Source: Nanobdellota archaeon (GTDB taxonomy: Archaea > Nanobdellota > Nanobdellia > UBA10117 > ARS21). Taken from it: DNA of 38,186 bases. The notes beneath the pieces were generated by a model. That model did not search any database and was not told the DNA's origin. It saw only the letters and a program-made list of their open reading frames with translations. This document shows positions 1,891-27,410 of this stretch, piece by piece. The DNA is taken from NCBI GenBank assembly GCA_014240455.1, contig JAAZWY010000002.1, forward strand, positions 1-38,186. The letters run 5' to 3'. Made by a program: the position numbers and the translations under genes. How positions within the stretch are numbered: the first letter of the stretch is position 1; every line of letters begins with the position of its first letter.

Positions 1891-3066
1891 ATGACAAATC
1901 CGCAAGAGCCAATTGGTGCTGAAGAGTATCATTATGAAGTTAAGGTAATTGGGGACTCTAATATTTTTGGACAACATGATGGTGGAGGTAGTGAAGGTCT
2001 TGCAGGAGTAAGAAATCTTTTGTATTCTAAAGTCGGGAAAGATAATGTAAAATCTCATACTCATTCTAACCCCCCTCATTGGAAGATTAAGATTCGAGAC
2101 GAACATGTTGGAGCTCTTGAATCTTTTGTAAAGAAAGAAAGTGGACTTACTTTTGAGAAATGTACATTTCAATTTAAAGGAATTTCCATAAAAGATCCTT
2201 CGCTAATTGATTATCTATTGTCTTCAGATAAGCGAGTTGATGCTTTAGAAGACAGAAATTCTGAACTAATTCGTTATGTTGAATCTCTCGAAACAGATTA
2301 TGATCAGTTAAAGGATGAGCATGGTCACTTGGAGAAAGATCATACTCGTGTTGAACGTAAATTGTCTGAAGCTCGTCAGGCTGCAAACGTTCCAATATAC
2401 GTCGCTCCTCAAGATGATTCTACGAAGGAACGTACATCTAAACTCTATAATGAGGTAGTTAGTTTGGAAAAAAGATTGTCTGAAGCCAAGAAACTAAGTA
2501 GGAACGTATTGAGACTTGCTGAACTTGATCGAGATTATTGTGAAGGAATTGTTGAGACTCAGAAATTGTATTCTGCCGCAGGTGCTGATTTTGATCAGAA
2601 AGATCTTGAATATTATACTGCTAAGGAATTGTTGAAAAATGAGTTTGGTTATGAATCAATTACTAAATTAGTTAAGGAAAAGAATCATATTGATCGTAGA
2701 ATTTCTCCAATTTGTAATTTTACTCAAGCAGAGTTTGAAGGTACTTTAATTAATGATGAAATTCCCTTTGATGAGTTTTTAGTCAGAGGCATGAACTTAT
2801 TTGATGAAACTTCTGATGACTATCTGACTCGTCGAGAACGTACTGATTTCTTTGGAAAAGATTTGGGAAATAGACTGAGAGATCATTTTGCTGCAATTCG
2901 TTCTTTCAAAGAACGTGGAGATGACTATGACAAATTTCAAAAGAAATCTATCTTGCTTGAACGAATAAGATTGGCTTATGAGTCGCATTCTGATGCTCAA
3001 GAAACAAAGGATGATCGGGAGCGAGTTGGTAAAAGAGTACATAAGAGGTTGAATCAAGATGACTAA
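1891..3066 (+). CDS. hypothetical protein, central coiled coil
   Basis: 391-aa ORF with a TATA box (1862-1869) ~25 nt upstream. Charged heptad-like segments span roughly aa 110-200. I recognise no motif. Confidence 0.6.
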   Translation: MTNPQEPIGAEEYHYEVKVIGDSNIFGQHDGGGSEGLAGVRNLLYSKVGKDNVKSHTHSNPPHWKIKIRDEHVGALESFVKKESGLTFEKCTFQFKGISIKDPSLIDYLLSSDKRVDALEDRNSELIRYVESLETDYDQLKDEHGHLEKDHTRVERKLSEARQAANVPIYVAPQDDSTKERTSKLYNEVVSLEKRLSEAKKLSRNVLRLAELDRDYCEGIVETQKLYSAAGADFDQKDLEYYTAKELLKNEFGYESITKLVKEKNHIDRRISPICNFTQAEFEGTLINDEIPFDEFLVRGMNLFDETSDDYLTRRERTDFFGKDLGNRLRDHFAAIRSFKERGDDYDKFQKKSILLERIRLAYESHSDAQETKDDRERVGKRVHKRLNQDD

Positions 3067-12188: not shown

Positions 12189-12752
12189 TTAACCAAATAA
12201 TTTGTTCTTTAATCTTTTCATGTAAGTTGGACCGTTCATTATTGCGCTCTCTAATGAAATTGATGCGTAAGATTTTTTCTTTTTCATTGCGAAACCTAAT
12301 CTGATTAAATTAGCTGCAATTATGAATCCAGTTAATCCGTATGCAACTTCATCTACTGCTTCTGGAAATTCTTCTGTAACAAAGCGTCCTGCCCATCCTG
12401 TTCCTTGAACCATAACATAATATTGCGGAGAGAACGCAATGTCAATTAGTGCGTTCTGTTTTGTTAATGTGTGTGCTTCTTTTTCTGCAATTAATGCAAA
12501 AGCTTCTTGATCTCCTTGAGTCATTGCACCGCCAATATATGCTTGTAGAAATGTTCCAACAGGTCCAATATTTGCCTTTCCTTTCAATCGCTTTTTGTAA
12601 ATATTATTTATCCATCGGTTTACAAAACCAGTATCTTGTACATATTCAAAATATGCTTCTTCTGCCGCACACCTATTCGAGATGTGTCTGTTACCTTGCT
12701 CATCAAAACTGAATAAGCCACGTTCCTCTAAGATTGATTCTAATGTTGTCAT
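12189..12752 (-). CDS. hypothetical protein with a C-terminal hydrophobic helix
   Basis: 187-aa ORF, 10 nt downstream of ndk and 15 nt upstream of the MFS gene, so probably co-transcribed with them. No recognised motif. Confidence 0.55.
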   Translation of the reverse strand: MTTLESILEERGLFSFDEQGNRHISNRCAAEEAYFEYVQDTGFVNRWINNIYKKRLKGKANIGPVGTFLQAYIGGAMTQGDQEAFALIAEKEAHTLTKQNALIDIAFSPQYYVMVQGTGWAGRFVTEEFPEAVDEVAYGLTGFIIAANLIRLGFAMKKKKSYASISLESAIMNGPTYMKRLKNKLFG

Positions 12753-18285: not shown

Positions 18286-18819
18286 ATGAAATCTGGAATT
18301 AGAGCAATTGATTTTATGAATCACAAAGTGATTACTGTAACGCCCGATATGACGGTTAAAGAAGCTGCTAAACTTATGAACGTTCATAGAGTTGGTGGAG
18401 TTCCAGTTTGTGAAGGTAAGGAATTACTTGGGTTGTTAACTGAAAGAGATATTATGATGAGAGTTACTGCTCTTGACAAACTTCCTAGTTCTTTGAAAGT
18501 TGGACAAGTTATGCAAAGTCCTTTGAAAGCGATTGGTGAAAAATTCGAGGATTTATCAAGCCTTGCTAGAAAAATGAGTGAACATAAAATTTCTAAAATT
18601 CCGATTGTAGAAGATGGAAAATTGATTGGAATTGTTACAAATAAAGATGTTGTAGCTCACGCACCAGATTTATTAGATACATTTATTGAAAGATTGGCTG
18701 CAAGCGATAAAGGTCTGGCTGGTCATCCTGCTGCATTCGGACAATGTGAAGCTTGTGGTTCACATGGACATTTACATTTTCAAATGGATCAATTCATCTG
18801 TGATGATTGTATCAACTAA
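18286..18819 (+). CDS. CBS-pair domain protein with a C-terminal zinc ribbon
   Basis: Two CBS repeats (HRVGGVPV...GLLTERDI and HKISKIPIVEDGKLIGIVTNKDV) followed by CEACG...CDDC. Confidence 0.85.
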   Translation: MKSGIRAIDFMNHKVITVTPDMTVKEAAKLMNVHRVGGVPVCEGKELLGLLTERDIMMRVTALDKLPSSLKVGQVMQSPLKAIGEKFEDLSSLARKMSEHKISKIPIVEDGKLIGIVTNKDVVAHAPDLLDTFIERLAASDKGLAGHPAAFGQCEACGSHGHLHFQMDQFICDDCIN

Positions 18820-19571
18820 ATTAAAATTCCAATAAGATTTCTTAGACCTTGTGCAAATCCTAAAACAAATATTGCCAGTAGGATTAATCTTGAGAATTCT
18901 TTATCCTCACTTTTGTTTAACAAGTAAAGAATTGGAACAACAACCGCCAATTTTAGTGGAATAAATGAAAATGACGAACCTGTTTTTTCTATTACAAAAC
19001 GAGGTAGTACATGTTTTTCAAATCCTCCAAACAGAGATAAAATTAATGCTGTGTTTACTGCGTCAAAAAGTTGTCCAGTATATGCAAAGATTGTTAATTT
19101 ATTTTTGAACCAATCTTGTTTGAATTTATTTGCGAGAATTATGCTGATCCAAACTCCGGCAACTAGAATGAAAATTATACCTGTAAGATAGTTTAAGTTT
19201 TGAAAAGTTGGGATTCCGTATCTTATTGGGATAAATAGTATTGCTAAAGCTCCTAGTAATCTTGGTCTTCTTAGAAATAATCCTACTAAGAATATTACAG
19301 TCATTGTTAGATATATTCCTGGGCTTACGCTTAGGAAGGTTTTTGGAATTAAATTAATGTCAACATATGCACGAGTTAATGCTCCGAGAAAAATGTAAGG
19401 AATTAGATCAATAGCTAACGCAGAATTAATTTTTATGTTTCGCTTCTGAAATAATTTATGTATTAAGAATAATCCTCCGAATGCCAATAGTGCGTAAGTT
19501 AGTGTGTTTACAACATTGTATTCATAAGTTGCATTAAATGGCTCAATAAAATATTTTTCTAGAAGTGCCAT
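18816..19571 (-). CDS. polytopic membrane protein, possibly DUF63 family
   Basis: 251 aa with about 7 hydrophobic helices. From memory, the N-terminal YNVVNTLTYALLA resembles the archaeal DUF63 signature. The family assignment is tentative. Confidence 0.55.
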   Translation of the reverse strand: MALLEKYFIEPFNATYEYNVVNTLTYALLAFGGLFLIHKLFQKRNIKINSALAIDLIPYIFLGALTRAYVDINLIPKTFLSVSPGIYLTMTVIFLVGLFLRRPRLLGALAILFIPIRYGIPTFQNLNYLTGIIFILVAGVWISIILANKFKQDWFKNKLTIFAYTGQLFDAVNTALILSLFGGFEKHVLPRFVIEKTGSSFSFIPLKLAVVVPILYLLNKSEDKEFSRLILLAIFVLGFAQGLRNLIGILI

Positions 19572-20056
19572 CCGCTATCTTCTTCCTCTTCTTCAAGTGC
19601 TGGTTTCTTTTGTTGTTCAGGCTGTTGGAAAGGTTGTGGTTGAACTGGTTGTGGTGCAGGTTGAACTGGTTGTTGTGGTTGAGAAGGTTGTTGTGGATTG
19701 AATGGATTTATTTGAGGTCTTGCTGGTTGTGGTGCAGGTTGAACTGGTTGTGGTCTTGGTTGTGCATTAGATCTTCCTTCAATAGTGGACATTCGTTGAG
19801 ATATTGAATCCATGTTTCGTTTTAATTGTTCAAGCGTTGAGGTAAGTAATTGTACGCTTCTTTGTATTGAATCTAATTTTTCATTACTTGGCGCAGCAGA
19901 AGGTATTTGTGTAAATCCTGAACTTGGACTTGAGTGATCCATATCCGCAGAAGGTCCTGGAACAGCAGTTCCGCTAGGTTTTCCAAATTTTTCGTCAAAA
20001 TGAGGGAACTCTTCTTTCTTTTTCTTCAGGGGATTAATTTTATCCAGAAGCGCCAT
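19559..20056 (-). CDS. hypothetical coiled-coil protein with a P/Q-rich low-complexity region
   Basis: 165-aa ORF with a TATA box (20078-20085) ~25 nt upstream. It has a coiled-coil segment (LDSIQRSVQLLTSTLEQLKRNMDSISQRMSTIE), a PQPVQPAPQP repeat region and an EEEEEDSGWHF C-terminus. It overlaps the downstream membrane gene by 13 nt. Confidence 0.6.
   Translation of the reverse strand: MALLDKINPLKKKKEEFPHFDEKFGKPSGTAVPGPSADMDHSSPSSGFTQIPSAAPSNEKLDSIQRSVQLLTSTLEQLKRNMDSISQRMSTIEGRSNAQPRPQPVQPAPQPARPQINPFNPQQPSQPQQPVQPAPQPVQPQPFQQPEQQKKPALEEEEEDSGWHF
19645..19751 (-). repeat. 29-nt exact direct repeat (19645-19673 and 19723-19751) in the P/Q-rich coding region
   Basis: ctggttgtggtgcaggttgaactggttgt occurs twice, 78 nt apart, and encodes QPVQPAPQP. 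Confidence 0.88.
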
Positions 20057-20077
20057 GGTAGTTGGTGCCTTGAATGC

Positions 20078-20085
20078 TTAAATAA
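20078..20085 (-). promoter_or_regulatory. TATA box for the P/Q-rich protein / membrane protein pair
   Basis: ttatttaa on the - strand, centred 25.5 nt upstream of ATG 20056. Confidence 0.5.
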
Positions 20086-20113
20086 TTTGCGTAGCTGAAG
20101 CATTGGTAAAGTA

Positions 20114-20121
20114 TTAATATA
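20114..20121 (+). promoter_or_regulatory. TATA box for the orphan three-gene operon
   Basis: ttaatata, centred ~23.5 nt upstream of ATG 20141. Confidence 0.45.
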
Positions 20122-20140
20122 ATCAGAGCAATTTGCTAAT

Positions 20141-21526
20141 ATGCCTAGAAAAAAGTCTAAAGGTGCTTCAAAGATTGAAAAAGCACTCTGGAAAAAGGTG
20201 GATTCGAAGGAAATTCACTATGAAAACTTTGCTGAAGGCATTGAGAAATTCTATTTTTGGGTTACAGATTTTATGGAGAGCACGCTACACTACAAACTTA
20301 GTAAAATTGAAGACACTTCATTCGCTAGTGTTGGTTCCTCGCAGTGGGGATTGATTGAGCAGAGAAAATCAATTCAGCAAGATAAAGCTGCACAATATAT
20401 GGGAACTATAGGTGGAATGATTAAGAGTATGATGCAAATTTACAAGGAATTGAAAATTATTGATGAGCGACTTAATTATTACAGTGAAGCAGATACTGGA
20501 AGTGTTGCTGCTGAGATTGCTCTGAAATCTCTTTGGATTGATTTAGTTGAAGGTGGTGCAAAACAACCAACTTCAGTTCTTGGTCTTGCATCTCAAGTTG
20601 GATTTGTTACTTTGCCTGACTTGTTCTTTAATATAACTCCGAAGGATTCTAAATCTGTTGATAAGGCAGTGGATAATTCTAAAATTGAGACTAATGTTCA
20701 AGTTAAAAATATCTTGAAACGAAAGTTAAAACAGTATATGACTTGGCGAGACCGAACTAAATCTGAATTGGCAACTCGTCGTTATTTCAATATTAAATAT
20801 TTGGCTCAGCACTTTAACGTAATTAAAATGTATGGTGATTGGGCAAAGCCTTATTTACAAAATATTGGTAGATTGAATCAAAAGGTTCAGGAAGACTATT
20901 CATATCAGTTGCTTGAAGGAAGTGAGAGTACGGTTGCAGATATTGAGTTAATGGGTCAAAGGAAGATAAAGGAGCGTGACACTGAATTTGATAAAGTCTT
21001 TCCAATAATGGTTGTAAACTTTCATCACCGAACTCGTCCAGTTAGTGCATATCAGCAAGAACAGCATAGAGGAAGTCTACATATTGGTAGAGTTGAAATA
21101 AAATTTACAAGTTATCTTGCGAATAAAAAAGGACTTGATGATTATAAAAACAAAAAGAAAACTGAAACCTTGAAACTTCTTAAGACGGTTGATGCTTCAA
21201 TGAGCGCTCTGTTAGATAGTCCAGATTCTAAAGCTGAGTTTGAAGGTTATTTGAAAGAAGCTGAAGGGATTAAGGAGAAACAAGCCGAGGATGAAAAGAA
21301 AGTAAAGGGAAAATCTAGTTTTGGTGGTTTTGAGATTTTTATCCCTGAATATTTTAAGAAAACTCAGAGAGACGCTCGCTTGAAATCTAAATCAAGTAAG
21401 AAACCAAAAAGAGGTTCTGATGACTTGACTGATGAAAAATCACTTGCTAAAATTATTGCAAAGGAAGATGTTGGAACTATTTTTAAGACATTTAAGATTG
21501 TCCACGGAATGTTGGTAAGAAGTTAA
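20141..21526 (+). CDS. hypothetical protein (461 aa), first gene of an orphan operon
   Basis: Long ORF with a TATA box (20114-20121) ~24 nt upstream. It has no P-loop, TM segment or signal peptide and ends in a lysine-rich C-terminal third. I recognise no family. Confidence 0.65.
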   Translation: MPRKKSKGASKIEKALWKKVDSKEIHYENFAEGIEKFYFWVTDFMESTLHYKLSKIEDTSFASVGSSQWGLIEQRKSIQQDKAAQYMGTIGGMIKSMMQIYKELKIIDERLNYYSEADTGSVAAEIALKSLWIDLVEGGAKQPTSVLGLASQVGFVTLPDLFFNITPKDSKSVDKAVDNSKIETNVQVKNILKRKLKQYMTWRDRTKSELATRRYFNIKYLAQHFNVIKMYGDWAKPYLQNIGRLNQKVQEDYSYQLLEGSESTVADIELMGQRKIKERDTEFDKVFPIMVVNFHHRTRPVSAYQQEQHRGSLHIGRVEIKFTSYLANKKGLDDYKNKKKTETLKLLKTVDASMSALLDSPDSKAEFEGYLKEAEGIKEKQAEDEKKVKGKSSFGGFEIFIPEYFKKTQRDARLKSKSSKKPKRGSDDLTDEKSLAKIIAKEDVGTIFKTFKIVHGMLVRS

Positions 21527-21527
21527 A

Positions 21528-22022
21528 ATGATTGGTCCAAAAGAATGGGAAGAATTGAAAAATGAAATTTCTAAGCTTAATCCTATTTTAAGAATGAAAC
21601 GATTGAAGGAAGCTCTTATTCGTGCATCGGATTCAAAACTTAAGAGTGAAATTAATGAATTGATTTTGAAATCTGAATCTGATTCAATTGAATTCTTTGA
21701 TTCTCGCGCTGCTAAACCTACTGTGTCTTCTTCTCTTGAAAAGTTAGTTAGTGGTAAGAAATTTGAGGAAGGGCGAAATGATAGAAAAATTGAAGATATT
21801 GCTATGGAAGAAAGTAGTCTGACTGATTCTGAAGTTAAGAAAAAGGCAGTGAATTATGATCCTAACAAAAAGACTGAGTTTTATGATTCTGATAATGATT
21901 CATTGAGTGATGCCTATAAACCAACTGAACATAATGCTCATGAAATTGAGTTTGAAGAAAACAGCTTAAATAAAAGAAAGGATTATGTAAATAGAGAGGA
22001 AATGGATTTTAATGGCGCATGA
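21528..22022 (+). CDS. hypothetical acidic protein (164 aa)
   Basis: Starts 1 nt after the upstream stop and overlaps the downstream start by 11 nt. It is acidic and probably helical or disordered. Confidence 0.55.
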   Translation: MIGPKEWEELKNEISKLNPILRMKRLKEALIRASDSKLKSEINELILKSESDSIEFFDSRAAKPTVSSSLEKLVSGKKFEEGRNDRKIEDIAMEESSLTDSEVKKKAVNYDPNKKTEFYDSDNDSLSDAYKPTEHNAHEIEFEENSLNKRKDYVNREEMDFNGA

Positions 22023-23958
22023 TCATAGTCACGGACACAAGCATAGTCCTGAGACTCCTGAAGTTCCTAAATATTGGCATTCTATGGACTCAACTCAATG
22101 GAGTTCTGAATCAGATAGAATTAAATTAGGAATAAGTACTCCTCCAATGCAGGATCAGCTTCAAAGTATTCAGGCGCGTATTCGTCAAGGTGCTCAAGCA
22201 GTAGAATTAGGATTTATAGGAACTGGAAAGGGTTCAGCAGGTCAAGGTAATTTTACTCCCGGAACAGTTGGCATCCCTGAGCGAGAAGCTATTAGAGATA
22301 TTGCAAAAGTTAATGACGTTAAAATTTCTTCAGTACATGCATCTATGAAAATTCAAGGTTTGGCTGGTTTTGATGGACGACAGGGATTCAGTGAAGCTAA
22401 ACGAGCCATGGATATGGAAGAAGTTAAAAGAACTATTGATTTTGCTGGAGACGTTACTGATGGAGGTGCAATTGTTGTTCATACTGGTGAGTTTCCGTAT
22501 AGCGTTCAGGGAAAGCATGGTGAAACGCCATTTAAAACTAAAGGAGGTAAACCGATTCAGTTAAGTGAAGGACAGGCTATAGCTCAGAGATCGGCTCAAT
22601 ATTTGGTTAATACAAAAACTGGAAGAGTTGCTTCTGAAATAACTCCCGATTTTGAAGTTGATTTCTTGGAGAAGAAAAAAGATTCTAGAGAACTAGAGTT
22701 TGAAAAGAAAACAAGAAAATATGGTTGGTTTGTTGATAAGGCTAAAGCAAATCTGGCTAGCAAAGAACTAATTGATGAGAACAAGACTGAATATAGCGAA
22801 CATAATCAAGGAATGAAATTGAGTAACGAGGAATACAAAAATACTTACGGTGATCCTGGATGGGTTGCGTTGCATTTTCAAATTAAAGAAGGTATTACAC
22901 AAAGCAAATCTGATGAACTTTGGCACAGGGCAAGATATCGAGAATATAAAAATGATTTTGATCAGTCTAAGATTCAGTTAAAATTGGCAGAAGCGTTGCA
23001 TTCACGTTCAGGTATTGCTGTTCCTGATGCGGAAGGGAAAAATCGTATCGATGCTTTGCGTCATAAAGTTGACATTTCTGAGCATCATGTTAAGGCTGAA
23101 GAAGAATACATAAAGAAATATGATCTCCAGCGGAAAAATGCTTATGATCAATTGTATAATATACGTCCAATTGAATCGTATGGTGTAAATAAAACTTCTG
23201 AATCTATTGCAGAGCTTGCACTTGATGCTGCACGAGTTACTCGTGATAAGAACTTAAAGAATCCATTGTTCGTTGCTCCCGAAAACTTATGGGGTGATCA
23301 ATATGGTGCACATCCTAAAGATTTACGAAAAATCATTGTTGATTCTCGATCCAAGGCTGTTGAATATATGACTGCTGATAAAATTAAGATACATGGTGAG
23401 GAAGTTAAAAATCCATTCAAAGGTAGAGTCAAGAAAGCACTCGGACATATGCCTTCTAAATCTGAGGCAAAAAAAATTGCCGAGAATCATATCAAAGCAA
23501 CTTTTGATATTGGACATGCGAACATTTGGAAAAAATATTTTTCTGGAGATGAAAAAGAATTCAATTCTTGGTTAGGTCATGAAGTTGATAAATTAACCAA
23601 AGACGGAATTATTGGACATGTTCACGTATCCGATAATTTTGGATATAATGATGAACATTTACCGCCTGGCTACGGAAATGCTCCAATTAAAGAATTCTTA
23701 ACTCATATGCAGAAATCTGGATTTGATAAAGAATATATTGTTGAACCTGCACACCATGATGTTGGTGCGCTTCATGCAGGAATGGAATTCTTACAAACTC
23801 CAATTTATAGAATTGATACTCAAACTCATCGATGGACTTCTCCTGAAAGGTCTTACTTTGGACAGACACACGTTCCGGGATTTGTTACTCCCGGATATTT
23901 GCCACACTCAGGCGGAGAACAAAAACCCATGGTTTGGTCTGAATTACCATTAGAATAA
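22012..23958 (+). CDS. xylose-isomerase/endonuclease-IV-like TIM-barrel metalloprotein with a large insertion and a His-rich N-terminus
   Basis: AP_endonuc_2-type strand-end motifs appear in order: AVELGF, SSVHAS, IVVHTGE, LFVAPEN, TFDIGHAN, GHVHVSDN...DEHLPPG, YIVEP. About 230 aa of charged helical sequence lie between HTGE (aa 157-160) and APEN (aa 422-425). The N-terminus is MAHDHSHGHKHS. Confidence 0.7.
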   Translation: MAHDHSHGHKHSPETPEVPKYWHSMDSTQWSSESDRIKLGISTPPMQDQLQSIQARIRQGAQAVELGFIGTGKGSAGQGNFTPGTVGIPEREAIRDIAKVNDVKISSVHASMKIQGLAGFDGRQGFSEAKRAMDMEEVKRTIDFAGDVTDGGAIVVHTGEFPYSVQGKHGETPFKTKGGKPIQLSEGQAIAQRSAQYLVNTKTGRVASEITPDFEVDFLEKKKDSRELEFEKKTRKYGWFVDKAKANLASKELIDENKTEYSEHNQGMKLSNEEYKNTYGDPGWVALHFQIKEGITQSKSDELWHRARYREYKNDFDQSKIQLKLAEALHSRSGIAVPDAEGKNRIDALRHKVDISEHHVKAEEEYIKKYDLQRKNAYDQLYNIRPIESYGVNKTSESIAELALDAARVTRDKNLKNPLFVAPENLWGDQYGAHPKDLRKIIVDSRSKAVEYMTADKIKIHGEEVKNPFKGRVKKALGHMPSKSEAKKIAENHIKATFDIGHANIWKKYFSGDEKEFNSWLGHEVDKLTKDGIIGHVHVSDNFGYNDEHLPPGYGNAPIKEFLTHMQKSGFDKEYIVEPAHHDVGALHAGMEFLQTPIYRIDTQTHRWTSPERSYFGQTHVPGFVTPGYLPHSGGEQKPMVWSELPLE

Positions 23959-24001: not shown

Positions 24002-24808
24002 ATGAAGTTTAAGTATCAACGACGAGCCAATAATCTTGAATCAAAATATCCTAAACTTGATAGAGATCTTGCACGGAAGTTTGCTAAAATTGTCAATGCT
24101 GAGTTGGGCGATTTAGTTTCAGCACTTGTTTTGTTTGGTTCTGCTGCACGAGGAAGTTCTAATAAAAGTAGCGATATTGATATTTTGATTGTTACTGATG
24201 ATGTTCATATTAATATGAATAAAGAGTTGGTTGAAACTTATCGTATTATTATACAAAAGGCAGTTGCAAAAGTTAACCCAGATAGACTTCATATTCAAAC
24301 TTTACCACTTACTACTTTCTGGGAATATGTTCGAGCAGGTGATCCGGTTGCAGTTAATATTTTGCGAGATGGAATTGCTTTGATTGACAAAGGTTTCTTT
24401 GACCCTCTTCAACTTCTATTATTGAATGGTAGAATAAGACCTTCTGGAGAATCAGTTCATACCTATATGAATATGGCATATTCTAGTTTAAATCGTTCAA
24501 AATCTGGTCTTGATAATGCTATTGTGGACCTTTATTGGGCGACGATTGATGCTGCTCATGCTGCCCTTATGAGTGTTGGAGAAGTACCAACCTCTCCTAG
24601 CGCGGTTGCAGATATGATTGATGAAAAACTTGTCAAACAGAAATATGTTACTAAGAAATACTCTGACATAATGCGGCATATGTATGAAGTCTCTAAAAGA
24701 ATTATGAAGCGTGAGCTTAGTAGTCTTGATGGTAAAACCTATGATCGATATCTAAAACACACTGAAGATTTTGTTGAAGCTATGAAAAGGGTTGTAAATC
24801 GTAAATAA
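24002..24808 (+). CDS. Pol-beta-superfamily nucleotidyltransferase fused to a HEPN-like helical domain
   Basis: LFGSAARGSSNKSSDIDILIVTDD is the minimal NTase G[SG]...D.D motif. The C-terminal ~130 aa are helical, in a HEPN/KNTase_C-like arrangement. The track start is TTG 23996, but the TATA box at 23971-23978 favours ATG 24002. Confidence 0.75.
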   Translation: MKFKYQRRANNLESKYPKLDRDLARKFAKIVNAELGDLVSALVLFGSAARGSSNKSSDIDILIVTDDVHINMNKELVETYRIIIQKAVAKVNPDRLHIQTLPLTTFWEYVRAGDPVAVNILRDGIALIDKGFFDPLQLLLLNGRIRPSGESVHTYMNMAYSSLNRSKSGLDNAIVDLYWATIDAAHAALMSVGEVPTSPSAVADMIDEKLVKQKYVTKKYSDIMRHMYEVSKRIMKRELSSLDGKTYDRYLKHTEDFVEAMKRVVNRK

Positions 24809-25534
24809 TTAATCTAAGTATTCCATTAATTCTTCTAGATTTTCAATGCCAATTCTTGCTCCCATTTCTGGAAGATTTCCGTTTATCAGACCAATAAGTC
24901 CTGCTGTTTCTAACTTATCAGAAACTTGATTAATTATTTCTGAGTTTTCAGCCAAATAAGCAAGATGATCTGGTCTAGTTATTAAACTATTCATTAAGTT
25001 AACAATTATGTTTTCAACTAATTCTTTAGTTTCTCCTTCAACTTCAGCGTGATAATCAATAGAGTTTGTTAGATAGTTTACAATGTTCTCAGATCCTTCA
25101 TTTATTACAAATCTTGCTGGAGATAATCCGTCACCCAGATTGTTTAATAATCCGTTTAAGTTAGCTAGATTTGTTGGATCTGCCTGATAATTATTCATTG
25201 CTTCAGTTGGAATTATTTCAGAAGAATGTGCCATTAATCCCGCCCTCAGGGGAATATCCTCATTTATTTCTTCAATAGTTCTTTCATGACCGTATGCTTT
25301 AGAAGTAAGTTCTAATAGGAACTCATTGATTTCATTATATGCAACTGCATCGTTTTTATCTCGAGCATCAATAATTTTTTGCATTAATTTATAATGTGCT
25401 TCAGTTTTGAAGTCTCCTATCTCTTCACCAACTTCTATTAATTTTTGTGCATATAGCCATTCTGTCATATATTTTGCCCCAATTTTTGGTTTAAAAGCGT
25501 TTCGTTCAAGAAATTGGAGAATGTTAGAAAACAT
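24809..25534 (-). CDS. hypothetical acidic helical protein (241 aa)
   Basis: Long ORF wedged, on the opposite strand, between the two NTase-HEPN genes. Its stop abuts the stop of the 24002-24808 gene. No recognised motif. Confidence 0.55.
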   Translation of the reverse strand: MFSNILQFLERNAFKPKIGAKYMTEWLYAQKLIEVGEEIGDFKTEAHYKLMQKIIDARDKNDAVAYNEINEFLLELTSKAYGHERTIEEINEDIPLRAGLMAHSSEIIPTEAMNNYQADPTNLANLNGLLNNLGDGLSPARFVINEGSENIVNYLTNSIDYHAEVEGETKELVENIIVNLMNSLITRPDHLAYLAENSEIINQVSDKLETAGLIGLINGNLPEMGARIGIENLEELMEYLD

Positions 25535-25562: not shown

Positions 25563-27410
25563 ATGGTTAATAGTTCAAATTCTTCTCAAGATTTAGCAAG
25601 TAATGATAAATTGAAAGAGATGTTTGGTAAATTTAAAGAGTCTCAACAAGGTTCCAAGCAAAAAGCATTGGAGGATTTGAATAAAACTCTTGATAAAGTT
25701 CAACCAACTGCTGAAAAGATAAGAGATTCTTTACTAAAACGGCATAAGAAGGAAATACTTGGTGCAGTTTTGACCATGCGACCTTCTGCTCCAAAACCTG
25801 GTGAAAAGCCTACAATGAACCCTAATTTAATTATTGTTTCTGAGTTGAGGAATAAATCTCCAAAGGAAAAGATGACTCATATTGCAGAGATTGAGAAAGA
25901 TGGAAACAGTATGACTAAAACAAGTGGTCTCAAAGTTACTTCAATTTTACTTGAAGAAATCTGGGATTTTGCAACTCGAGGTCAATATGATATTATGCGT
26001 AGTATTGTTTCAGGTAGATTGATTCATGATGAAGGTGATTGGATAAAATCTTTGAAGGCTGTTGAGATTCATAAGATTAAGATGCTTAAGAAGTTTGAGA
26101 AGTATGTCGTTTCTTATGTTATGGCAGGATCTCTTATTCGAGGAGAAGCAAATTCTGATTCAGATATTGATGTTTCTATTGTAATTGATGATACTGACGT
26201 AACTAGAACTACTTCTAATGAATTGGTTTTGCGACTAAGAGATATTTCTGCTAAGTTTGCAAGAGAGTCTGAAAGAGAAGTTGGAATTCGAGGTAAACTC
26301 AATATTCAAGTTTGGATTCTGACAAGGTTATGGGAAGGATTACGTAGAGCCGAACCAGTATTTTATACTACTATTAGAGATGGAGTTCCACTTTATGATC
26401 GAGGAATGTTTGCACCTTGGAAGTTAATGCTTAAGCGCGGTCTTCTTACTCCGACTCCTGAATCTATTCAAAAATATATCAAAGATGGTAAGAATTATTT
26501 GAACAGAATTAAGCTGAAGTTTAGAGATATTGCTATTGAGGATTTATTTTGGTCAACAATTTTTCCAGCTCAAGGAGTATTAATGTTGTTAGGAGTTCCT
26601 CCAGGAAGTCCAAATCATATCTCTGGACAATTGCGAGAACACATGGTAAAAAAGGGTCATCTTGAAGAAAAGTATGTCAAGATCTGGGAACGATTGCATA
26701 AACTGAGAAAAGATGTTGAGTATGGAAAAGTCAAGGAAGTTAAACTTGAAGTTATGACTAAGAATTATAATGATGCGGTTGGATTTGTTGAACGAATTGA
26801 AAAAGCATACAAAGATATTGAGAAGAAGTTGATTAATTCAAAGATTAAAGCTGTTAAATCAAAGTCGGTAGAAGATGCTCAACTGGTTCTCAAAGTTGCA
26901 GGAGTTAAAGCAAGTAAGAGTGGTGTAAAAAATGCATTGAAATCTGAATTAATTGCCAAAGGTCTTGCTAGTTCAAAATATTTAGAGTTAATTAATTCTG
27001 CAGGAAATCTGGATAGTAATCGATCAAGTTTGACTGAAGTTGAGAGTTTAGAATTCGGTTTGGATAAAGTTCGAGATGAAACTATTGATATTATTAATGC
27101 TGAAAAAGGTTTGAATAAAGATCGATTTAGGCTTCTATTGAGATATGGTTCTGGCGAAAATCAAAGAACTGCGCATTTGTGGTTGTTTAACACTGAAGTG
27201 TTTATTGTTAAAATGGGTTCAGGTCAGGCAGAGATTGTTAAGTATGAAGTCGGTAAGAAGGGTGTATTGCAAAACGGTAAATCAAGTACTTTGAAAGTTC
27301 TTGAGAAAAAATTAGCAACTTTTGATGGTGCTCCAACTCAAGTTTCGACAAAAATGATTTCTTCTCTGAAAGAATTATTGGATAATAATTTGAGAATGTT
27401 TGTAGGTTAA
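25563..27410 (+). CDS. large nucleotidyltransferase-HEPN protein with an extra degenerate NTase-like module and a C-terminal extension
   Basis: MAGSLIRGEANSDSDIDVSIVIDD is an intact NTase motif. It is followed by a HEPN-like domain (LHKLRKDVEYG) that can be aligned by eye to the 270-aa neighbour. The N-terminal aa ~60-165 repeat the post-NTase motif (ILLEEIWDFATRGQYDIMRSIVSGRLIHDEGDW) but lack GS/DxD. Confidence 0.72.
   Translation: MVNSSNSSQDLASNDKLKEMFGKFKESQQGSKQKALEDLNKTLDKVQPTAEKIRDSLLKRHKKEILGAVLTMRPSAPKPGEKPTMNPNLIIVSELRNKSPKEKMTHIAEIEKDGNSMTKTSGLKVTSILLEEIWDFATRGQYDIMRSIVSGRLIHDEGDWIKSLKAVEIHKIKMLKKFEKYVVSYVMAGSLIRGEANSDSDIDVSIVIDDTDVTRTTSNELVLRLRDISAKFARESEREVGIRGKLNIQVWILTRLWEGLRRAEPVFYTTIRDGVPLYDRGMFAPWKLMLKRGLLTPTPESIQKYIKDGKNYLNRIKLKFRDIAIEDLFWSTIFPAQGVLMLLGVPPGSPNHISGQLREHMVKKGHLEEKYVKIWERLHKLRKDVEYGKVKEVKLEVMTKNYNDAVGFVERIEKAYKDIEKKLINSKIKAVKSKSVEDAQLVLKVAGVKASKSGVKNALKSELIAKGLASSKYLELINSAGNLDSNRSSLTEVESLEFGLDKVRDETIDIINAEKGLNKDRFRLLLRYGSGENQRTAHLWLFNTEVFIVKMGSGQAEIVKYEVGKKGVLQNGKSSTLKVLEKKLATFDGAPTQVSTKMISSLKELLDNNLRMFVG

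Follow-up and report, generated by a model that had tools for sequence, protein, structure and literature searches.

A four-gene module of the Nanobdellota centered on a TIM-barrel protein with a probable endonuclease IV-type metal site and an inserted helical arm

Endonuclease IV (Endo IV; Nfo in Escherichia coli) is a monomeric single-domain enzyme. The PolX-PHP proteins of bacteria and archaea combine a nucleotidyltransferase (NTase) of the Pol-beta superfamily with a trinuclear-metal phosphoesterase, which cleans 3′ ends or cuts apurinic/apyrimidinic (AP) sites. MJ1311 of Methanocaldococcus jannaschii has been listed as a predicted Endo IV homologue of that organism (PMC2770678). The locus described in this article lies in the window—a stretch of 38,186 nucleotides (nt) from a Nanobdellota archaeon (contig JAAZWY010000002.1 of assembly GCA_014240455.1) that was analyzed as a whole. 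It consists of four plus-strand genes, termed A, B, C, and D (Table 1), of which C encodes a triosephosphate isomerase (TIM)-type barrel and D an NTase. A-(B)-C-D is a four-gene module specific to the phylum Nanobdellota (Woesearchaeales/Pacearchaeales, DPANN). A previous reading of the window from its sequence only had taken A, B, and C for an orphan operon of three tightly packed open reading frames (ORFs). Their coordinates and lengths, the 1-nt gap between A and B, and the 11-nt overlap between B and C are all reproduced in the ORF list of the window; however, the operon is neither an orphan nor limited to three genes, as the conserved unit includes the gene directly downstream of C, which had been missed.

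Relatives of A were found in 449 and relatives of C in 447 species-level genomes, all of them Nanobdellota bar evident mislabels and carrying the labels Woese-, Pace-, or Nanoarchaeota. With a pool of 1,288 Nanobdellota genomes in GTDB R232 (bioRxiv 10.64898/2026.05.13.725050), the module thus occurs in at least ~35% of the phylum, a share that rests on pattern-based detection and is a lower bound. Many module-bearing metagenome-assembled genomes are titled "uncultured Methanosarcinales" (L018, L043, L044, and others) and one, L131, "Marinoscillum sp.," a genus of Bacteroidota; these titles look like taxonomic mislabels or bin contamination.

The order of the genes is largely fixed. Among 63 informative loci anchored on A, C lies downstream on the same strand in 56 (in 55 of these within ~2 kb), is divergent in one, and is absent within 4–7 kb in six; among 72 informative loci anchored on C, A lies upstream on the same strand in 56, is found nearby in another arrangement in four, and is absent in 12. 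Hence, A and C are adjacent in ~80–90% of informative loci. Of 70 informative C-anchored loci, 44 have D directly after C and another 12 have it at a distance of up to 4 kb (56/70, ~80%); the corresponding numbers for the A-anchored set are 21 and 10 of 45 (31/45, 69%). Most loci also have a B-like ORF in the interval from A to C. Co-conservation of the A-B-C trio, which the sequence-only reading had proposed as a check, therefore holds for the A–C pair, but there are lineages that lack B and others in which A does not adjoin C; in some of the latter, B-C-D persists. Three distant genomes illustrate the range: one reads A-B-C-x-D, with a 3-nt gap followed by a 4-nt overlap; another A-C-D, with a 7-nt overlap; and the third A-x-B-C-x-D, where intervening genes separate the members. 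The expectation of a lineage-specific and strongly conserved arrangement was borne out by ~450 genomes of one phylum, which argues for a function. No description of the module was found in the literature on MJ1311, DPANN TIM barrels, and Woesearchaeota endonuclease IV. Some loci carry an extra small gene between C and D (L001:12028-12567, with a weak match to a DOT1-like methyltransferase, and L003:12241-12924, 227 residues and of no family), and such genes may be lineage-specific additions to the module. In two B-C-D loci without A nearby (L143:3103-5082 and L147:1433-3394), the upstream gene encodes a membrane-anchored, Cys-rich protein of 650 residues with a lipase-like α/β-hydrolase C terminus (GHAV...FSMGG).

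Protein C was assigned to Pfam family PF01261 (AP_endonuc_2, xylose isomerase-like TIM barrel) with 57.5 bits against a cut-off of 31.1, the match being split into two stretches by a long insertion. The same family is present in all listed homologues of C but one truncated match (P0159). An AlphaFold2 (AF2) model computed from 51 homologues (predicted local distance difference test [pLDDT] 83, predicted template modeling [pTM] score 0.81) exhibits a (β/α)8 barrel, for which Foldseek returned, as the best match, MJ1311 (Protein Data Bank [PDB] entry 3WQO; template modeling [TM] score 0.75), followed by Endo IV of Staphylococcus aureus (TM 0.63), UlaE, D-tagatose 3-epimerases, and xylose isomerases, all with a Foldseek probability of 1.0. 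The strand-end motifs from which a barrel of the Endo IV/xylose isomerase type had been proposed are all in place—SSVHAS (residues 106–111), IVVHTGE (154–160), FVAPEN (420–425), FDIGHAN (498–504), GHVHVSDN (535–542), DEHLPPG (547–553), and IVEP (576–579)—and the proposal is borne out by family, model, and structural matches as well as by the metal ligands described below. MJ1311 is the sole solved protein with significant sequence similarity to C, with E-values of 4e-7 for the single sequence, 7.7e-10 for the full profile, and 2e-10 for a profile of the insertion-free barrel; the significant stretch is limited to the C-terminal half of the barrel. D-tagatose 3-epimerases in the PDB match C at E ≥ 0.09. 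The DUF692/MbnB-like multinuclear iron TIM-barrel family was not among the matches of C at E ≤ 1 in a general Pfam scan.

The metal site was compared in an alignment of E. coli Nfo, 15 barrel-only C sequences, and the MJ1311 orthologue from a Methanocaldococcus genome, in which the Nfo sequence had been confirmed against 1QTW (3e-195 over 285/285 residues). We take the trinuclear zinc ligands of Nfo to be H69, H109, E145, D179, H182, H216, D229, H231, and E261, reportedly as in the 1999 structure of Hosfield et al. In C they correspond to H109, H157, E424, D499, H502, H538, D547, H549, and E578, respectively. All nine columns hold the identical residue in the 15 C sequences, the MJ1311 orthologue, and Nfo, and the nine residues of C are invariant among its 51 homologues, down to an identity of ~33%. 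The earlier statement that C carries the usual metal ligands can thus be made for the complete Endo IV set. The DNA-inserting residues of Nfo after the first His, such as Tyr72, have no conserved equivalents in C by inspection of the alignment. In sugar epimerases, the metal site is formed by E-D-H-E; C has five further invariant His/Asp ligands (H109, H157, H502, D547, and H549), and the epimerases show a gap of five residues in the alignment at the D-x-H ligand segment that C (as D-E-H), MJ1311, and Nfo have in common. The full nine-ligand set makes a metal-dependent phosphoester hydrolase the most likely identity of C, in preference to a sugar epimerase, and C is described here as a probable three-metal, Endo IV-like hydrolase. 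Its link to Endo IV runs through ligand pattern and fold and not through direct sequence proof. C would be an MJ1311-type "hybrid"—on the side of the sugar epimerases by sequence and of Endo IV type by its putative ligand set.

The same comparison bears on the possibility that C is an isomerase or epimerase of sugars or phosphosugars with a single metal (E-D-H-E) and that the module forms a small carbohydrate or nucleotide-sugar pathway. Such a role would agree with the PF01261 assignment, with the labels "sugar phosphate isomerase/epimerase" or "TIM barrel protein" that public databases give to the family, with the sequence matches next to MJ1311 (3-keto-D-glucoside 4-epimerase at E = 0.0024, then D-tagatose 3-epimerases), with the structural matches to UlaE and D-tagatose 3-epimerase, and with the presence of GlmS in the same window. 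It is nevertheless unlikely: the five additional ligands complete the Endo IV set, the D-E-H segment is absent from epimerases, and the best NCBIfam model, fructoselysine 3-epimerase, reaches 20.3 bits against a cut-off of 305. To our knowledge, sugar pathways feature neither a coiled-coil arm nor a disordered acidic partner nor a Pol-beta-type NTase, and the sugar-1-phosphate nucleotidylyltransferases have a different fold. In addition, Pacearchaeales have been reported to lack upstream glycolysis (bioRxiv 10.64898/2026.05.13.725050).

The barrel of C is interrupted between strand β3 (HTGE) and strand β4 (APEN). A helical insertion of ~230 residues (nt 22504–23181) had been read from the sequence, and a long helical insertion does lie between these motifs; however, it comprises ~258 residues (161–418) and contains a β subdomain as well. 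In the AF2 model, where pLDDT is mostly >85, the β subdomain spans residues ~180–236 and is followed by an antiparallel helical hairpin (282–332/340–382) and a return helix (387–412). The helical arm measures roughly 75 Å, as estimated from helix length. The insertion occurs in 51/51 aligned homologues, variable in sequence and length, and is absent in MJ1311 and Nfo. Taken literally, it is therefore a common feature of an annotated subfamily, a case for which the sequence-only reading had allowed, but the annotation is the generic database label given above and the subfamily is without any characterized member. Within a known enzyme superfamily, C represents a new variant in architecture. A family-specific loop after β1 with invariant G67, F68, K73, G74, T82, P83, and R91 is likewise missing in MJ1311 and Nfo; of these residues, K73 and R91 would suit an anionic substrate. 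Both termini of C are predicted to be disordered (pLDDT <50). The His-rich N terminus (residues 1–35, MAHDHSHGHKHS), although present as first noted, is carried by close relatives only, being confined to the sub-lineage of the window. The C-terminal extension, at first put at ~60 residues, was found as a tail (599–648) that contains the conserved aromatic motifs W..SYFG and W.WS..PLE. Herein, W608, Y615, F616, G617, and W642 are near-invariant and E648 is invariant in 51 sequences; 51/51 C proteins end in [LMIF]E.

Protein A is basic (isoelectric point [pI] 9.45) and forms a new family with a novel fold that has no detectable relative. Its AF2 model (pLDDT 77, pTM 0.60) shows a β-sheet assembled from N-terminal (19–62) and C-terminal (264–327) strands and a helical hairpin (67–118/186–245) of roughly 80 Å, with the helix length taken from the residue count. 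The tip of the hairpin (122–179) is highly conserved (WIDLVEGGAKNP..GFVTLPDLFF) and includes the motif with the strongest conservation in the family, WIDLVEGGAKNP.SV.GLASQVGFVTLPDLFF. Beyond the hairpin, the model contains two further helices, a disordered Lys-rich linker (389–425), and a terminal helix. Thirty columns of the family alignment are invariant, and so are many polar helix positions, unlike in a bland coiled coil. That A belongs to no described family, as had been suspected, was confirmed throughout: it has no match in Pfam, NCBIfam, or PADLOC, Pfam gave no consistent match over all 56 aligned members, the PDB profile search yielded nothing below E = 0.36, and Foldseek against the PDB and BFVD found no match at E ≤ 0.001. 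Searched against 1.84 billion cluster representatives, the profile of A retrieved 311 proteins at E ≤ 1e-30 and 705 when the threshold was relaxed to E ≤ 1e-3; among the 150 matches listed, the relatives share architecture and length and show no fusions. Homology of A to the insertion of C was rejected by hhalign. The C-terminal third of A is Lys-rich in the window (net charge +9), as previously described, but it is also Glu-rich, and the feature is not conserved across the family. A Lys-rich, nucleic-acid-binding tail as a conserved property of A was thus ruled out by the median charge of −1. In some orthologues (P0078, P0110), the linker that precedes the terminal helix contains a CxxC...CxxC zinc ribbon, and Pfam DZR/Zn_ribbon matches occur in two members of the family.

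The top sub-threshold Foldseek matches of A are generic coiled coils, EmrA, STAT3, and Cyt toxins (TM <0.25). As START domains and BAR-PH proteins also appear beside the Cyt toxins, one may think of A as a lipid- or membrane-binding partner and of C as a phospholipase-C-like phosphodiesterase that removes head groups from scavenged host lipids. The trinuclear zinc enzyme PLC of Bacillus cereus hydrolyzes phospholipid, albeit with a different fold, and DPANN archaea depend on host lipids. However, the matches in question have Foldseek probabilities of 0.04–0.44, no lipid-metabolism genes are linked to the module, and a transmembrane-level or strongly hydrophobic segment is found in none of A, B, or C (highest KD19 value, 1.38), which also upholds the earlier statement that A and B lack membrane segments. 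A lipid-directed role is extremely improbable.

Protein B has a pI of 5.0 and a net charge of −8, so that it is moderately rather than strongly acidic, as it had been called. Its low complexity and low hydrophobicity suggest that it may be largely disordered. The conserved elements are short—an N-terminal helix (L.P..R...L+.LL), the motif LE..V, and a Tyr. A word-based search found close homologues only. In most loci, however, an ORF of 150–210 residues occupies the position of B, acidic in 33/44 cases, and jackhmmer joins 38/44 of these ORFs into one fast-evolving family. No Pfam or NCBIfam family was assigned, and PADLOC gave weak matches to RT_UG23 (E = 0.006) and Cas7 (E = 0.012) only. B is a new family, in line with the failure to place it from sequence.

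Of the module's proteins, D is the most strongly conserved, with 45–60% identity across the phylum and 38 invariant columns. It matches PF01909 at E = 3e-10 through the motif LFGSAARG...SDIDILIV, and the same family was assigned in 25/25 orthologues, which conform to hG[GS]x9-13Dh[DE]h with G46, D58, and D60 invariant. Beyond the N-terminal NTase domain lies a helical C-terminal domain, conserved and peculiar to the family (FWEYVRAGDP..., VDLYWA.IDAAHAALM); polymerase fingers, thumb, or 8-kDa domains are not recognizable. The best NCBIfam match is HalB of the Hailong system (E = 5e-9) and the best PADLOC matches are the candidate minimal-NTase families PDC-S09 and PDC-M05A. None of the curated NCBIfam cut-offs is reached (HalB 36 bits against 190, MntA 30 against 60, and ANT(9) 26 against 340), and the similarity to HalB, KNTase, and MntA is at motif level only. 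Two genes downstream of D were seen to stay with the module in closer relatives (L007-L009, L014, L047): 25563–27410 (+) encodes a protein of 615 residues with a central region paralogous to D (NTP_transf_2) and long N- and C-terminal extensions, and 24809–25534 (−), between the two, an acidic protein of 241 residues and of no family.

The identity of D suggests two further ways to read the module. In the first, D adds AMP (adenosine monophosphate) or another nucleoside monophosphate to a hydroxyl, for instance that of a conserved Tyr in B or in the tail of C, C removes it as a phosphodiesterase, and A serves as the regulated target or as scaffold. MntA, KNTase/ANT, and HalB, the closest models of D, transfer nucleotides to hydroxyls; C and D are linked as strongly as A and C, and a Tyr is conserved both in the otherwise variable B and in the tail of C. 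Against such a nucleotidylylation switch stand the level of these matches, all confined to the motif and far below the family cut-offs, and the fact that no modified residue is known. We also know of no Endo IV-like barrel that acts as a de-AMPylase, and we give the switch little likelihood. In the second, D would resemble HalB or the CD-NTases and produce a nucleotide signal for antiviral defense or signaling, with C as nuclease or phosphodiesterase effector or as degrader of the signal and A and B as sensors. Defense loci typically contain novel accessory proteins, and HalB, PDC-S09, and PDC-M05A are the best matches of D. These matches, however, span only 30–100 residues of the NTase motif, with HalB far below its cut-off; A and C have nothing in PADLOC at E ≤ 0.1, and B has its two sub-threshold matches. 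Moreover, the module is found in ~450 species genomes of one phylum in fixed order and with 33–60% identity, so that it looks vertical and core-like, and it lies among housekeeping neighbors in a region without any GC (guanine plus cytosine) anomaly. A defense or signaling role is thus very unlikely.

Taken together, the module is tentatively proposed, at somewhat short of an even chance, to be a lineage-specific multi-subunit metallo-phosphoesterase with an associated NTase that acts on ends or lesions of nucleic acids. C would be the catalytic core, a predicted metal-dependent phosphoester hydrolase, and its insertion would supply a β platform and the helical arm beside the active site. A and B may bind to C as subunits or regulators without catalytic activity, perhaps by way of the arms or of the conserved tail of C. 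D, which is KNTase/HalB-like, may act in the same pathway: C would clean or incise phosphodiester or phosphomonoester ends or lesions of nucleic acid and D would add a nucleotide. Its likelihood is put no higher because the nearest relative, MJ1311, is uncharacterized and no observation points to a particular substrate.

Several observations weigh against it. By sequence, E. coli Nfo scores E = 600 against the barrel-only hidden Markov model of C, no Endo IV chain is among the PDB profile matches of C at E ≤ 10, and hhalign of C with Endo IV gives only E = 0.16; sugar epimerases rank next after MJ1311, from E = 0.0024 for 3-keto-D-glucoside 4-epimerase to ~1. MJ1311, the one significant relative, has no assigned function, and its structure is said to have been described as having no DNA-binding groove. 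The basic tail of A is not conserved, the family median of the net charge over the last 140 residues being −1. The nearest relatives of D modify small molecules or proteins or make oligo-deoxyadenylate and do no gap filling, and the module is not linked to a ligase or to any other repair gene. Finally, in 10–20% of informative loci the module is lacking or its members are not neighbors, and ~10 loci have no B. In its most elaborate form, the proposal describes a multi-subunit machine in which an Endo IV-like trinuclear barrel is mounted, through coiled-coil arms, on a partner of novel fold and joined by an acidic disordered regulator and a dedicated NTase, for non-orthologous healing of nucleic-acid ends or lesions or another essential phosphodiester task in the genome-reduced Nanobdellota; this specific picture is rather unlikely. 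The probability left beyond the proposal and the four other readings set out above falls to some other function.

The upstream side of the locus is an intergenic region between divergent genes. A single TATA box at leaderless distance had been described for the operon. The box of A (TTAATATAA, 20114–20122), centered ~23 nt before the ATG at 20141, does fit a leaderless transcript start, but the region holds two boxes, one per divergent gene, the other (TTAAATAATTT, around 20080–20089) belonging to the minus-strand gene 19559–20056. Purine-rich stretches precede the starts of B and C. The 43-nt spacer between C and D contains a third TATA-like box (AATTATTTATA) ahead of D, and D may therefore be transcribed both with the operon and alone. 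The window is a segment of an archaeal chromosome with a uniform GC content of ~35%. Its neighboring genes are housekeeping genes: the split RNA polymerase genes, TFB, aIF5B, Trm1, GlmS, and ribosomal proteins. A mobile or viral island was ruled out by the uniform GC content, these neighbors, and the lack of viral fold matches.

Table 1. Positions in the window of the module genes, of parts of protein C, and of the upstream intergenic region
Feature	Position	Strand	Description	Source
Gene A	20141–21526	+	461 aa	ORF list of window
Gene B	21528–22022	+	164 aa	ORF list of window
Gene C	22012–23958	+	648 aa	ORF list of window
Gene D	24002–24808	+	268 aa, Pol-beta-superfamily NTase	PF01909
His-rich disordered N terminus of C	22012–22116	+	begins MAHDHSHGHKHS	pLDDT and alignment
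Insertion in C	22492–23265	+	residues 161–418	AF2 secondary structure and alignment
C-terminal tail of C	23806–23958	+	residues 599–648	pLDDT and alignment
Divergent intergenic region	20057–20140		84 nt, two TATA-like boxes	read from sequence

Further genes in the surroundings were recorded. A block of three genes upstream of A (18286–20056) is kept in closer relatives and encodes a CBS-domain protein with a Cys/His-rich C terminus (CEACGSHGHLH...CDDC), a DUF63 membrane protein, and, divergent from A, a coiled-coil protein of 165 residues with a Gln/Pro-rich repeat tail (PQPVQPAPQP...). In the window and in close relatives, a ZIP zinc transporter gene (PF02535; 17456–18205, minus strand) is located ~2 kb upstream of A. 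In three distant loci in which A and C are not neighbors (L058:1721-2500, L078:8374-9081, and L079:1686-2465), A is directly followed, on its own strand, by a ZIP gene of ~50% identity to this one. Together with the putative multi-zinc site of C and its His-rich N terminus, this proximity may reflect a link to metal supply or a coincidence. Two ORFs elsewhere in the window, 1891–3066 (+; 391 residues) and 12189–12752 (−; 187 residues), have no Pfam match at thresholds of E ≤ 1e-5 and E ≤ 1e-4.

Nanobdellota, as members of DPANN, have tiny genomes in which a large share of the conserved genes is without known function, and the host of the window is a reduced DPANN archaeon, as the impression of a stripped-down genome had implied. 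The module is kept in fixed order in at least one third of the species-level genomes of the phylum, and it joins a catalytic site of the DNA-repair type, an architecture unseen in characterized enzymes, and two families without detectable relatives. Once its substrate is found, a function could be given to several hundred "hypothetical" genes and a first functional handle would be gained on MJ1311-type barrels; the non-standard tools with which these symbionts look after their nucleic acids (or another polymer) might also come into view.

Among known systems, the sugar-branch enzymes differ from C in their metal site. D-tagatose/D-psicose 3-epimerases, UlaE, and 3-keto-D-glucoside 4-epimerase share its fold, are ~290 residues long, and have the E-D-H-E site and a VELGF-type β1 motif; they lack arms, partners, the D-x-H segment, and two additional His ligands of C. 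For D, the counterparts are KNTase/ANT, MntA, and HalB, which likewise comprise 230–270 residues with an hG[GS]...DxD NTase domain and a helical C-terminal domain; the similarity is limited to the motif, and the C-terminal domain of D is specific to its family. Endo IV (Nfo/Apn1; E. coli 1QTW) belongs to the same TIM-barrel superfamily as C and has the same nine ligands, but there is no significant sequence similarity, and Endo IV possesses neither the insertion nor partner proteins. MJ1311 (3WQO, termed "D-tagatose 3-epimerase-like protein") shares with C the motifs FDIGHAN and HVH.HDN.GY.DEH in addition to the nine Endo IV-type ligands. Whereas MJ1311 is a bare barrel of 277–293 residues without A, B, or D as partners, C adds the 258-residue insertion, the GKGS loop after β1, and the conserved tail of ~50 residues. 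The neighborhood of MJ1311—Mrp antiporter subunits, a radical SAM enzyme, and IMPDH—was considered as a functional clue and proved uninformative. PolX-PHP has no equivalents of A or B; by analogy, the linked C and D would follow the same enzymatic logic, with the AP_endonuc_2 fold in place of PHP for the hydrolase and with the two activities residing on separate genes.

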